A DNA stretch of 29,240 nt, taken from UHGV virus genome UHGV-0275034; one strand, 5' to 3'. The position numbers were made by a program, and so were the translations under genes. The DNA comes from a virus. This document shows positions 21 through 7,503 of the stretch, piece by piece; the first letter of the stretch is position 1; each line of letters opens with the position of its first letter. The notes beneath the pieces are model-generated. The model was not told the origin of the DNA, ran no database searches, and saw nothing but the letters and a program-made list of their open reading frames with translations.

Positions 21-311
21 ATGACGGGCAAAGAGGCAATTATTCATTACCTGGGGACGCATAATAGCTTCTGTGCGCCGGACGTTGCCGCGCTAACAGG
101 CGCAACAGTAACCAGCATAAATCAGGCCGCGGCTAAAATGGCACGGGCAGGTCTTCTGGTTATCGAAGGTAAGGTCTGGCGAACGGTGTATTACCGGTTT
201 GCTACCAAGGAAGAACGGGAAGGAAAGATGAGCACGAACCTGATTTTTAAGGAGTGTCGCCAGAGTGCCACGATGAAACGGATATTGGCGGTATATGGAG
301 TTAAAAGATGA
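21..311 (+). CDS. ren: Ren-like protein (lambda ren homologue, 96 aa)
   Basis: ATG at 21 preceded by AAAGGAG; 96-aa product matching my recollection of lambda Ren in length and sequence; sits immediately upstream of the nin region and a tR2-like terminator. Confidence 0.6.
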   Translation: MTGKEAIIHYLGTHNSFCAPDVAALTGATVTSINQAAAKMARAGLLVIEGKVWRTVYYRFATKEEREGKMSTNLIFKECRQSATMKRILAVYGVKR

Positions 312-336
312 CCATCTACATTACTGAGCTAATAAC

Positions 337-369
337 AGGCCTGCTGGTAATCGCAGGCCTTTTTATTTG
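337..369 (+). terminator. Intrinsic terminator (tR2-like) downstream of ren
   Basis: Perfect 8-bp stem AGGCCTGC/GCAGGCCT with 8-nt loop, followed by TTTTTATTT. Confidence 0.7.
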
Positions 370-383
370 GGGGAGGGTAAATC

Positions 384-590
384 GTGGCTGAGTTAATTTT
401 CTCTGCATTGAGGATTCTCGGTGCTATGTGGATGGTGGCGACGTTCATTGTTGTTGCCAGAAGTTTTGTCCGGTTGGTAGGCGAAGGTAAAGACCTGGTA
501 GGTGTGCTTTTCGGTAGCATTTTCCTGTGGGTGATTATCGGTGTTATGCCTGTCGCTGTAGCAAAAATGGCGTGGCGTTTTGTGAGTTGA
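384..590 (+). CDS. Small hydrophobic protein (68 aa, two predicted TM helices), GTG start
   Basis: GTG at 384 with GGAGG about 8 nt upstream; translation is dominated by two hydrophobic stretches; no family recognised. Confidence 0.5.
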   Translation: MAELIFSALRILGAMWMVATFIVVARSFVRLVGEGKDLVGVLFGSIFLWVIIGVMPVAVAKMAWRFVS

Positions 591-607
591 ACTGATGGTA
601 AATATCG

Positions 608-928
608 ATGGACGAATCAAGAAAGCAGTTTGAAGAAAGTTGGTTGCGACGTGGAGGCGAATCCTCAGACCTTATCCGTTACCCTGAAAATCACCATGAA
701 ATTGGCAGTGGTAATATTGGTGGTCAATACGTGATGGACGATGTTCAAGGCCACTGGCAAACGTGGCAGGCATCGCGATCAGCTATTGAAATAACCGCGC
801 CAAAGTTTATCGACAGCAGAGAAGCATTAGCCAAAGGGTTTACTGTTGATTATTCCAATGGCTTCGGTGATGCAATGGATGCTTATGAGGAAAACATCCG
901 CGCTGCTGGAATCAAAGTGAAGGAGTGA
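608..928 (+). CDS. Hypothetical phage protein (106 aa), paralogue of 1386..1742
   Basis: Shares N-terminal MDESRKQFEE, central W-x-W-QASR-x-AIE and C-terminal IRAAGIK motifs with the downstream ORF; the first ~30 nt of both genes are near-identical. Confidence 0.6.
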   Translation: MDESRKQFEESWLRRGGESSDLIRYPENHHEIGSGNIGGQYVMDDVQGHWQTWQASRSAIEITAPKFIDSREALAKGFTVDYSNGFGDAMDAYEENIRAAGIKVKE

Positions 929-1116
929 GCATGAGTCGACGAAGTAGCTTTTTGGGGTTTGTAATATTCCTGTCCTGCACTGGTTACATCGTAATCTGGT
1001 CAATTTCGAACATTGACCGTGGCGGGGAATATCTCATTGTAATGTTCTTTCCTTTGTTTCTTGGGTGGTACGCCGCAAGGTTGCTGGAAGAATGGGGTTA
1101 CAGGCATAAAAAATAA
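925..1116 (+). CDS. Small hydrophobic protein (63 aa, two predicted TM helices)
   Basis: ATG overlaps the upstream stop (ATGA coupling); strongly hydrophobic translation. Confidence 0.5.
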   Translation: MSMSRRSSFLGFVIFLSCTGYIVIWSISNIDRGGEYLIVMFFPLFLGWYAARLLEEWGYRHKK

Positions 1117-1175
1117 AGGAGTGTTCAGTGAAGCAAACCCTTTTTTATTGGATTAAGAGCGAGTGGTAAGTACCG

Positions 1176-1358
1176 ATGGTAAATGCATTTATTTGTAGTT
1201 TATTTCTTGTCGCGATTTTTCATGGATTCCTTCTGATGATGAGTTTTGTTCTCTGGAATAATGGATATCGCATATTGGGAGTAGGTTTTGTTTTACGGTT
1301 TTCAGTTGTCTGCGCGTTGCTACCGATAATTATGGCGACTATCAAATATTATTGGTAA
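1176..1358 (+). CDS. Small hydrophobic protein (60 aa, two predicted TM helices)
   Basis: ORF with hydrophobic translation in an AT-rich stretch; no family recognised. Confidence 0.4.
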   Translation: MVNAFICSLFLVAIFHGFLLMMSFVLWNNGYRILGVGFVLRFSVVCALLPIIMATIKYYW

Positions 1359-1385
1359 CCCAAAAAATCATCGATGGAGAGTGAT

Positions 1386-1742
1386 ATGGACGAATCAAGA
1401 AAGCAGTTTGAGGAATACGTTGCCAAAAAATTGAGATTACCATTCGAGATGATAACCGAGGCAAGAAATGGTGATAGGTACTTCGCATTTTCAAGCATGG
1501 ATATTCGTCACTCCTTAAATGAGTGGTGGACTTTATGGCAGGCATCGCGAGCAGCTATTGAACTGGATATCGACTGGCCAGAATCGAATGACGACTTTTG
1601 GAAAGATGGTGAAGAAGGTGCTTATGCGATGGGTTATGAGGATGGGCGTGACAAAACGGTAATTGCAGTAATGAAAGCTATCAGAGCCGCTGGAATTAAA
1701 GAGAAGAATTTCGATGAAGCAAACAATATTCCTCCGAACTAA
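1386..1742 (+). CDS. Hypothetical phage protein (about 118 aa), paralogue of 608..928
   Basis: Start chosen at ATG 1386 (MDESRKQFEE, GGAG 8 nt upstream) to match the paralogue; the ORF track allows an earlier ATG at 1374. Confidence 0.6.
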   Translation: MDESRKQFEEYVAKKLRLPFEMITEARNGDRYFAFSSMDIRHSLNEWWTLWQASRAAIELDIDWPESNDDFWKDGEEGAYAMGYEDGRDKTVIAVMKAIRAAGIKEKNFDEANNIPPN

Positions 1743-2124
1743 GCAACAACAGCAAGCCGCAATCAACGCCATCCTCGCAACACCACTCGATAAAGACAAG
1801 CCAGTCACCATCCGCATTACTGACTACAAGCGCAACCTTGACCAGAACGCAAAATTTCACGCGATGCTGGCGGATATCGCTCGTCAGGTTCAATGGTGCG
1901 GCAAATGGTTAAAACCAGAACAATGGAAGGTTTTGTTGATCAGCGGTCATGCAGTGGCAACAAAACAGGAAGCTGATGTTTTGCCCGGGCTTGAAGGCGA
2001 ATACGTCAACATTCGCGAAAGCAGCGCGCAGATGAGTGTGAAGCGTATGGCAAGTCTTATCGAGTACACAACAGCCTGGGCTATTGGTCATGGTGTCAGA
2101 TTTACCGACAGGAGGTACGAATGA
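1714..2124 (+). CDS. ninB: NinB (Orf-family recombination mediator)
   Basis: 136-aa product aligns with lambda NinB as I recall it (including a conserved LDQN motif); sits at the head of the nin gene string. Confidence 0.8.
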
Positions 2125-6285: not shown

Positions 6286-6609
6286 ATGAAGATGCCAGAA
6301 AAACATGACCTGTTAGCCGCCATTCTCGCGGCAAAGGAACAAGGCATCGGGGCAATCCTTGCGTTTGCAATGGCGTACCTTCGCGGCAGATATAATGGCG
6401 GTGCGTTTACAAAAACAGTAATCGACGCAACGATGTGCGCCATTATCGCCTGGTTCATTCGTGACCTTCTCGACTTCGCCGGACTAAGTAGCAATCTCGC
6501 TTATATAACGAGCGTGTTCATCGGCTACATCGGTACTGACTCGATTGGTTCGCTTATCAAACGCTTCGCTGCTAAAAAAGCCGGAGTAGAAGATGGTGGA
6601 AATCAATAA
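6286..6609 (+). CDS. S: Holin, lambda S type (dual start M1-K2-M3 giving antiholin S107 and holin S105)
   Basis: 107-aa product that matches lambda S as I remember it, including the MKM dual-start motif; the upstream sdi region also looks lambda-like. Confidence 0.9.
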
Positions 6610-7069
6610 TCAACGTAAGGCGTTCCTCGATATGCTGGCGTGGTCAGAGGGAACTGATAACGGACGTCAGAAAACCAGAAATCATGGTTATGACGTCATT
6701 GTTGGCGGAGAGCTATTCACTGATTACTCCGATCACCCTCGCAAACTTGTCACGCTAAACCCAAAACTCAAATCAACAGCAGCCGGACGTTACCAGCTTC
6801 TTTCCCGTTGGTGGGATGCCTACCGCAAGCAGCTTGGACTGAAAGACTTCTCTCCGAAAAGCCAGGACGCTGTGGCATTGCAGCAGATTAAAGAGCGTGG
6901 TGCTTTACCGATGATTGACCGCGGTGATATTCGTCAGGCAATCGACCGTTGCAGTAATATCTGGGCTTCACTGCCGGGCGCTGGTTATGGTCAGTTCGAG
7001 CATAAGGCTGACAGCCTGATTGCAAAATTCAAAGAGGCTGGCGGAACGGTCAGAGAGATTGAGGTATGA
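6593..7069 (+). CDS. R: Endolysin, lambda R type (lytic transglycosylase)
   Basis: 158-aa product matching my recollection of lambda R; start overlaps the end of S. Confidence 0.9.
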
Positions 7070-7503
7070 GCAGAGTCACCGCGATTATCTCCGCTCTGGT
7101 TATCTGCATCATCGTCTGCCTGTCATGGGCTGTTAATCATTACCGTGATAATGCCATCGCCTACAAAGAGCAGCGCGATAAAGCCAGGTACATCATCGCT
7201 GACATGCAGAAGCGTCAACGTGATGTAGCAGAACTTGACGCCAGATACACAAAGGAGCTTGCTGATGCTAATGCGACTATCGAAAGTCTCCGTGCTGATG
7301 TTTCTGCTGGTCGTAAGCGCCTGCAAGTCGCCGCCACCTGTGCAAAGTCAACGACCGGAGCCAGCAGCATGGGCGATGGAGAAAGTCCAAGACTTACAGC
7401 AGATGCTGAACTCAATTATTACCGTCTCCGAAGTGGAATCGACAAGATAACCGCGCAGGTTAACTACCTGCAGGAATACATCAGGACGCAATGCCTTCGA
7501 TGA
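7066..7503 (+). CDS. Rz: Rz i-spanin
   Basis: N-terminal TM segment ([31 protein letters not shown]) matches lambda Rz; C-terminal part diverges; contains an embedded +1-frame lipoprotein ORF. Confidence 0.85.
7265..7450 (+). CDS. Rz1: Rz1 o-spanin (outer-membrane lipoprotein embedded in Rz)
   Basis: +1-frame ORF wholly inside Rz; signal peptide and lipobox ([20 protein letters not shown]) followed by a Pro-rich segment; the start may be ATG 7265 or 7271. Confidence 0.7.

Follow-up and report, generated by a model that had tools for sequence, protein, structure and literature searches.

The window analysed here is the whole stretch of 29,240 nucleotides (nt) of UHGV virus genome UHGV-0275034. 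Our subject is its segment at 384-1742, between the intrinsic terminator tR2 and the ninB gene, which holds three small membrane-protein genes (TM1, TM2 and TM3) interleaved with two genes (A and B) for soluble paralogues of the phiTE_015 family (Table 1). The early-right end of the window is of lambda type, and HK620 matches at 96% identity over about 55% of the window's first 25 kb, covering portal, coat, terminase and DNA-transfer genes. We class the window as a phage or prophage of P22-like (Lederbergvirus) type.

Table 1 Features of the ren-ninB region, in window coordinates (aa, amino acids; ORF, open reading frame).
Feature	Position	Strand	Description and basis
ren	21..311	+	96 aa; upstream boundary; phrog_142 Ren-like exclusion protein, E 2e-41; 3' end identical to lambda ren
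ninA-like hydrophobic mini-ORF MTIYITELITGLLVIAGLFIWGRVNRG	308..391	+	27 codons, across tR2; putative
tR2 intrinsic terminator	337..369	+	Terminator scan, fold and lambda identity
TM1	384..590	+	68 aa, GTG start; first gene past tR2; phrog_1165, E 2.2e-37
A	608..928	+	106 aa; phrog_343, E 3e-30; N-cassette type 1, C-cassette type 3
Further linker repeats	608-637/1386-1415; 896-922/1680-1706	+	Direct repeats D1-D3
Nucleotide-conserved linker (WQASRxAIE)	764..790, repeated at 1536-1562	+	Direct repeats D1-D3
TM2	931..1116	+	61 aa from ATG behind AAGGAG; hydropathy, dN/dS
ninB-start remnant GTGAAGCAAAC (1128-1138)	1128..1169	+	Behind a Shine-Dalgarno; opens a 13-codon ORF
Putative second tR2-type terminator, 3' tail (CC + TTTTTTATTGG) and leader	1138..1175	+	5' stem arm lost
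TM3 (probable gene)	1176..1358	+	60 aa, in AT-rich stretch; hydropathy, homologue clusters
B	1386..1742	+	118 aa; phrog_343, E 5.6e-31; N-cassette 0, C-cassette 0; final 29 nt overlap ninB
ninB	1714..2124	+	Downstream boundary; PF05772, E 6e-56

Window positions 300-375 are 100% identical to lambda 40559-40634, which holds the end of ren and tR2. The terminator scan gave tR2 a stem at 337-360 of 8 pairs, 6 of them G-C, followed by a T-run, and its predicted fold is -16.8 kcal/mol, in keeping with the strong tR2-like terminator named in a preliminary description of this DNA. That description had also placed lambda ren and ninB less than 100 bp apart, and the gap is indeed 73 nt (ren end at 40570, ninB start at 40644). 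In the window, ren ends at 311 and ninB starts at 1714, leaving about 1.33 kb more than in lambda, with five ORFs on the same (plus) strand. All five small genes of the preliminary description are in place, with two corrections: TM2 has 61 aa rather than 63, the longer form using a GTG at 925, and B starts at 1386. The AT-rich part on which that description had based a suggestion of horizontal acquisition was likewise recovered, with a G+C content of 35.5-37.5% across 1101-1400 against 44-52% in the flanking DNA, and the mosaic composition of the region agrees with horizontal exchange.

Gene orders in the slot and the 1128-1150 junction

Comparison with relatives identifies the extra DNA as two alternative fillings in tandem rather than a single insert. 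In L018 and phiv205-1, the order TM1 - phiTE_015 - TM2 runs straight into a ninB starting GTGAAGCAAACA. Gally has the order helicase - intact terminator (GGGCTA...TAGCCC plus T-run; locus L003, 2480-2513) - TM3 - phiTE_015 gene - TM2 - ninB, and window segments 1138-1561 and 896-1138 are both present there at >99% identity in reversed order. At the TM2-ninB junction, the sequences of L018, Gally and L004 match the window exactly up to position 1138, and ninB has a GTG start in L018 and L004. Past TM2, the window reads AAAGGAGTGTTCA-GTGAAGCAAAC, made up of the Shine-Dalgarno of ninB and the gene's opening 11 nt, and then runs on directly as CCTTTTTTATTGGATTAAGAGCGAGTGGTAAGTACCG-ATG, which corresponds to the 3' end and T-tract of a Gally-type terminator, the leader and the TM3 start. 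The terminator scan called nothing in the 1138-1175 region, where the fold is only -6.4 kcal/mol. The preliminary description's 1.4-kb insert thus stands as extra DNA relative to lambda; as a single unit it gives way to two stacked fillings joined at 1128-1150.

The junction is not an assembly artefact: 56 of 5,426 complete E. coli genomes have it, as do lineages that are only about 90% identical to the window. Many more E. coli genomes match only as far as window position 1138 (query positions 1-59), and the listed examples lie on annotated ninB. Among the listed matches, prophages of O26:H11 and O103 E. coli that make Shiga toxin (STEC; e.g. strains 11368 and ML775) carry DUF7301 - TM2 - TM3 - B - ninB at 99.4-99.5% identity. 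Additionally, the complete window order recurs in L001 and L038 at about 90-95% identity.

We consider it likely that 384-1742 is the well-known variable accessory-gene slot of lambdoid and P22-like phages, bounded by tR2 and ninB, that has been loaded twice. The first filling would have been tR2 - TM1 - A - TM2 - ninB and the second tR2' - TM3 - B - ninB. One illegitimate crossover would have linked the opening 11 nt of ninB in the first filling to the terminator T-tract of the second, placing TM3 - B - ninB after the first filling's ninB start and removing the stem of the second terminator. A paralogous pair and three membrane ORFs would lie in one region because two fillings were joined.

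At the scar itself, the 13-codon ORF VKQTLFYWIKSEW keeps a strong Shine-Dalgarno (AAAGGAG) and stops 6 nt before the TM3 ATG; the Shine-Dalgarno of TM3 itself is weakened, reading GAGTGG in the window and GAGGGG in Gally. The scar ORF may now drive translation of TM3 by coupling.

A census of 80 loci from IMG/VR viral contigs, chosen for carrying a phiTE_015 gene, was used to describe variation in the slot; a scan of genome contigs gave 6 loci, too few for a census, and the viral-contig scan served instead. The synteny comparison proposed in the preliminary description found a shared slot with 26 gene orders in the 80 loci, an approximate figure that is skewed to relatives of B and in which the 'phiTE015-TM2-phiTE015' orders include at least one counting artefact (L090). 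The gene pool of the slot consists of TM1, a 106-aa single-pass membrane protein, TM3, DUF7301 (soluble and basic), TM2, a 54-aa acidic protein and phiTE_015. The commonest order is TM1 - phiTE_015 - ninB, and that of the window occurs twice. Directly upstream of phiTE_015, about 50 of the 80 loci have a recognised membrane-protein gene and 30 have none. Phage 933W, with ren - L0091 - L0092 - ninB, has none directly upstream of L0091, nor do Shimwellia and Erwinia relatives; the pairing of membrane and soluble genes is therefore frequent but not obligatory.

Several further observations concern the relatives. The 106-aa protein, absent from the window, lies between TM1 and TM3 in many of them (L006-L015, 2174-2494) and has one N-terminal membrane segment and a soluble domain (VADWQIPIIILAGASLVAGFILL...), with no Pfam match. 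The L017 and L018 contigs, which match B at 99% and 69%, otherwise look like E. coli-type lambdoid prophage DNA and were binned in metagenome-assembled genomes labelled Collinsella sp. and Bacillota bacterium, probably by mis-binning. In L013 (1-1882), the DnaB-type helicase upstream of the slot has 797 aa, with a weak LAGLIDADG_3 match between two DnaB_C matches, which suggests an intein or a homing-endonuclease insertion.

Soluble paralogues and small membrane proteins

Homologues 98% identical to B carry PF26207 (Phage_phiTE_015) and the RefSeq name 'phiTE_015 family protein'. In a profile search the family comprised 660 clusters (50% identity), most of them 90-105 aa long, and its members include Sf6 gp48, 933W L0091 and VT2-Sakai H0101. 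A and B are 34% identical (E 4e-10), paralogues interleaved with the membrane genes, as the preliminary description had proposed; alignment of the family places the start of B at 1386 (MDESRKQFE) and not at 1374. Three anchors characterise the family: an N-terminal SRxQFE(x)W, a central WxAWQASRAAIE and a C-terminal AIRAAGIKVK(GE). Among 72 diverse members, F8, W51, S54, R55 and G103 are invariant and E9 is present in at least 90%, and the alignments locate all six residues and the AGIKVK tail in both A and B.

The anchors are separated by two hypervariable cassettes, which reassort freely at the WQASR linker. The N-cassette of B is paired with 9 C-types and its C-cassette with 31 N-types, and all four combinations of the A and B cassette types occur. 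The direct repeats D1-D3 of A and B share 97, 96 and 81% nucleotide identity. At third codon positions, identity is 80-90% in linkers 1 and 2, 60% in linker 3 and 20-50% in the cassettes. Since the first two anchors are 96-97% identical with third positions included, the anchors would therefore also serve as recombination linkers.

Both proteins are acidic (isoelectric points 4.9 and 4.7; family median 4.9). An AlphaFold2 model of B built on a 72-sequence alignment is a bundle of about four helices, with a predicted local distance difference test score (pLDDT) of 78.5 and a predicted template modelling score of 0.63. Foldseek against the PDB with a first model (33 sequences, pLDDT 72.8) gave nothing below E 3.9, and a PDB sequence search with the family profile gave only matches at E >0.2; the BFVD entries with a related fold are uncharacterised and come from phages of Salmonella, Pseudomonas and Aeromonas. 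A and B would be small, acidic, mostly helical cytoplasmic proteins in which the anchors are fixed and the cassettes are freely swapped.

The C-terminal tail of B (1714-1742, plus strand) comes from the opening 29 nt of ninB, read in another frame, and family members beside other ninB alleles end ...IKVKE or ...EANIHASQRSNQK. B-type tails vary with the adjoining ninB; the tail would thus be a by-product of which ninB allele follows.

Turning to the membrane proteins, TM1, TM2 and TM3 each have two hydrophobic segments on the Kyte-Doolittle scale, which agrees with the two segments predicted for each in the preliminary description, and they are mutually unrelated in sequence; they would be unrelated inner-membrane hairpins. 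The GTG of TM1 lies 7 nt past the Shine-Dalgarno GGGGGAGGG, and lambda ninB uses an identical leader and Shine-Dalgarno. The phrog_1165 profile, labelled as of unknown function in PHROGs, covers residues 1-68 of the 68 of TM1. TM2 starts 2 nt past the A stop, with its AAGGAG within the final codons of A. Its termini are basic (MSRRSS at the N-terminus, RHKK at the C-terminus), suggesting an N-in/C-in hairpin with charges that follow the positive-inside rule.

The preliminary description had named a lack of conservation in related phages among the findings that would count against it, and the ORFs are kept in diverged relatives. The ratio of nonsynonymous to synonymous substitution rates (dN/dS) is 0.33-0.59 for TM1 against diverged relatives (dS up to 1.07) and 0.19 for TM2 against a 72%-identical homologue (dS 1.0). 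By these ratios, TM1 and TM2 are under purifying selection; the signal is weaker for TM3, discussed below. TM2 is clearly coding because its dN/dS is 0.19 at a dS of about 1. On sequence evidence, TM1, TM2, A and B are certain to be genes, and TM3 is a probable one.

Expression and candidate roles

All five genes are co-oriented with ren and ninB and lie behind an intact tR2. A consensus scan of 1-2400 found no promoter-like site on the plus strand, with 4.3 expected on both strands together. No terminator was found at the 3' end of the five genes, where B overlaps ninB by 29 nt, and Rfam over 1-2400 at E up to 1 returned only two sub-threshold chance matches. Lying behind tR2 and lacking a promoter of their own, the genes would therefore be transcribed only by antiterminated polymerase. 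They probably belong to the delayed-early class, transcribed past tR2 along with the nin genes, which would confine their expression to lytic growth or induction, and TM2 would be translationally coupled to A. The five genes appear dispensable because lambda has none of them, and the classical nin5 deletion, which removes the whole neighbourhood, is viable. The namesake phiTE_015 gene belongs to the virulent Pectobacterium phage phiTE, where its neighbours are hypothetical proteins and a NinX-like gene; the presence of the soluble family in a virulent phage favours a lytic-cycle role over one in the lysogen.

Searches with the five proteins returned little. Pfam, run at E 0.1 and again at E 10, gave nothing beyond a sub-threshold Acyl_transf_3 match for TM2, in a copy of the database apparently without the PF26207 model. 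NCBIfam gave no match, the PADLOC defence models gave 0 families at E up to 1, and PHROGs gave only families of 'unknown function', with nothing meaningful for TM2 and TM3 at a relaxed threshold. No holin family in Pfam or PHROGs was found among the five proteins, and the genes lie outside the lysis cassette. A type I toxin of the Hok/Ldr/TisB kind was also sought, and there is no antitoxin RNA in Rfam (E up to 1), no plus-strand promoter, and two hydrophobic segments instead of one. A literature search on the genes, their families and ninB/tR2 mosaics found nothing on these genes.

Given this setting, the five proteins may be dispensable lytic-cycle accessory proteins acting on host or competitor targets, and would not be components of replication, recombination or lysis. 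The variable cassettes of A and B could be binding surfaces; swapped cassettes on a fixed scaffold, together with exchangeable membrane partners, would fit counter-defence, host takeover or exclusion during infection. A more specific version is speculative and in our judgement improbable: that phiTE_015 proteins are cassette-shuffling early binders, with the three anchors as scaffold and the cassettes exchanged at the nucleotide-conserved linkers so as to track changing targets in host or rival phage, defence systems for instance; that the tR2-ninB slot, with its exchangeable small membrane proteins, is a hotspot for counter-defence or competition in lambdoid and P22-like phages; and that two different copies widen the range of targets.

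The following points weigh against this interpretation. No homology ties any of the five proteins to a function, and a role directed at host or competitor is a guess from position, variability and dispensability. The promoter scan used a crude consensus, and weak or non-sigma-70 promoters in the AT-rich stretch could escape it. The cassette-reassortment table is biased, as homologues were gathered with B as the query. Finally, TM3 is nearly neutral (dN/dS 0.64-0.85, from only 10-16 differences), and both TM2 and TM3 are left uncalled in RefSeq genomes by the Prokaryotic Genome Annotation Pipeline (PGAP).

Among the alternatives, the one that fares best, though we still hold it unlikely, is that TM1-3 would act at the inner membrane in lytic growth as toxins, division inhibitors or superinfection-exclusion factors, by analogy with T4 Imm, which blocks incoming DNA. 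Their two hydrophobic segments each, the positive-inside charges of TM2, their place in an early operon, the purifying selection on TM1 and TM2, and, in about 50 of 80 related loci, a membrane-protein gene placed directly upstream of phiTE_015 would all suit such proteins. However, TM1-3 match no PADLOC defence system, holin, Hok-type toxin or known exclusion protein. They are mutually unrelated, so one shared mechanism is unlikely, and soluble proteins, DUF7301 among them, can take their place in the slot. The preliminary description's toxins, exclusion factors or division inhibitors accordingly found no backing in PADLOC, NCBIfam or Pfam matches, in a holin-type context or in a promoter of their own.

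It is rather improbable that TM3, and possibly TM2 too, is a chance ORF in an AT-rich spacer, which would make the region partly non-coding. The near-neutral dN/dS of TM3 is what such an ORF would show, neither TM2 nor TM3 has a family match, and neither is annotated by PGAP. Specifically, both are intact yet unannotated at L001 3088-3540 and L002 2324-2751 (RefSeq E. coli genomes), and among the matches listed for the junction query, the O26 and O103 STEC prophages included, none has an annotated TM2 or TM3. Against this, the TM3 frame is free of stops for 180 nt at about 36-38% GC, and its homologues form three clusters that are each 60 aa long at 80-98% identity, the length unchanged down to 80% amino-acid identity. 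Its substitutions swap hydrophobic for hydrophobic residues. In Gally, TM3 comes first past the terminator, with a leader and Shine-Dalgarno that are homologous to the ones preceding TM1 and lambda ninB, and it lies directly upstream of the phiTE_015 gene in every one of loci L001-L003 and L006-L015. For TM2, the dN/dS given above speaks against a chance ORF.

We regard it as very unlikely that phiTE_015 proteins assist the recombination mediator NinB (Orf) as accessory factors. In temperate-phage loci with a downstream flank, the phiTE_015 gene adjoins ninB or is one or two small genes away, and B and ninB overlap by 29 nt; however, such adjacency is equally explained by a slot bounded by tR2 and ninB. 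Furthermore, lambda NinB works without a phiTE_015 protein, the same phiTE_015 protein types occur beside three ninB alleles of 35-39% identity, and in phiTE the genes annotated within the 10 kb surrounding phiTE_015 include no ninB. Most improbable of all is that the five genes are lysogenic-conversion morons expressed from the prophage, for instance to exclude superinfecting phages: the AT-rich DNA at 1100-1400 is typical of morons and the neighbouring ren is itself exclusion-related, but the genes sit directly behind an intact strong terminator on a strand without a promoter-like site, the second terminator is destroyed, no terminator follows and B runs into ninB, which leaves no autonomous transcription unit, and the soluble family also occurs in a virulent phage.

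Significance and known systems

The families concerned are already catalogued, as PF26207, phrog_343, phrog_1165 and the RefSeq 'phiTE_015 family protein'. What is modestly new is the stacking scar, the two conserved but unannotated membrane ORFs and the two-cassette architecture of phiTE_015 proteins. The locus offers a clean case of how lambdoid gene content is built, with slot alleles probably stacked by a single join whose scar is still legible. It also flags TM2 and TM3, left out of the RefSeq annotation of dozens of E. coli genomes, O26 and O103 STEC prophages included, and points to a modular build for a widespread family that is present in Shiga toxin (Stx) phages. Should the family prove to be a counter-defence or host-takeover binder, the slot would be a convenient source of variants; as things stand, this is ordinary lambdoid mosaicism and leaves the knowledge of phage biology unchanged.

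Of known systems, the phiTE_015 family itself is the closest. A and B share its three anchors and its position before ninB, and the window differs in that a single phage has two copies, whose variable cassettes are not alike. Membership in the family provides no mechanism. The only link to a studied protein is to P22 EaD: the last ~40 residues (42 aa) of the phiTE_015 family align to the EaD C-terminus and, like it, end in AGIKVKGE (hhalign E 1.4e-4, probability 52%). Lambda Ea22 ends AGIRIKGE, so that a tail AGI(K/R)(V/I)KGE is common to it and the family, although the match is insignificant (2% probability). Ead/Ea22-like proteins, encoded in the exo-xis region, resemble the phiTE_015 family in being mosaic early accessory proteins, whereas A and B lack the Ead/Ea22 coiled coil and the fold of the Ea22 C-terminal domain. 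Assignment of A and B as Ead/Ea22-like (PF13935) was tried and rejected: Pfam gave no match at E up to 10, and the likeness is limited to the C-terminal tail. Ea22 is reported to be pro-lysogenic through an unknown mechanism (PMC10834534, PMC7093339). The similarity to EaD and Ea22 is too short for that pro-lysogenic role to be transferred to A and B.

In size (60-68 aa) and in their two hydrophobic segments, TM1-3 are like the pinholin S21 68 and T4 Imm. They differ in having no sequence match to either and in lying outside the putative lysis cassette, which ORF position places at about 6286-7503, several kb downstream.

For the slot itself, the ninA position of P22 and HK620 is the same locus, on the same strand and at the same terminator; HK620 annotates tR2 and ninA there, the latter at a position matching the mini-ORF at 308-391. 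This mini-ORF starts 4 nt before the ren stop, spans the tR2 hairpin and ends inside the start of TM1. Subsets of the same genes occupy the slot in mEp235, phiv205-1, Gally, HK022 and Stx phages. In lambdoid phages, a mosaic nin region is textbook knowledge. From such nin-region mosaics the window differs by holding what we read as two fillings in tandem, with the joint between them still readable.

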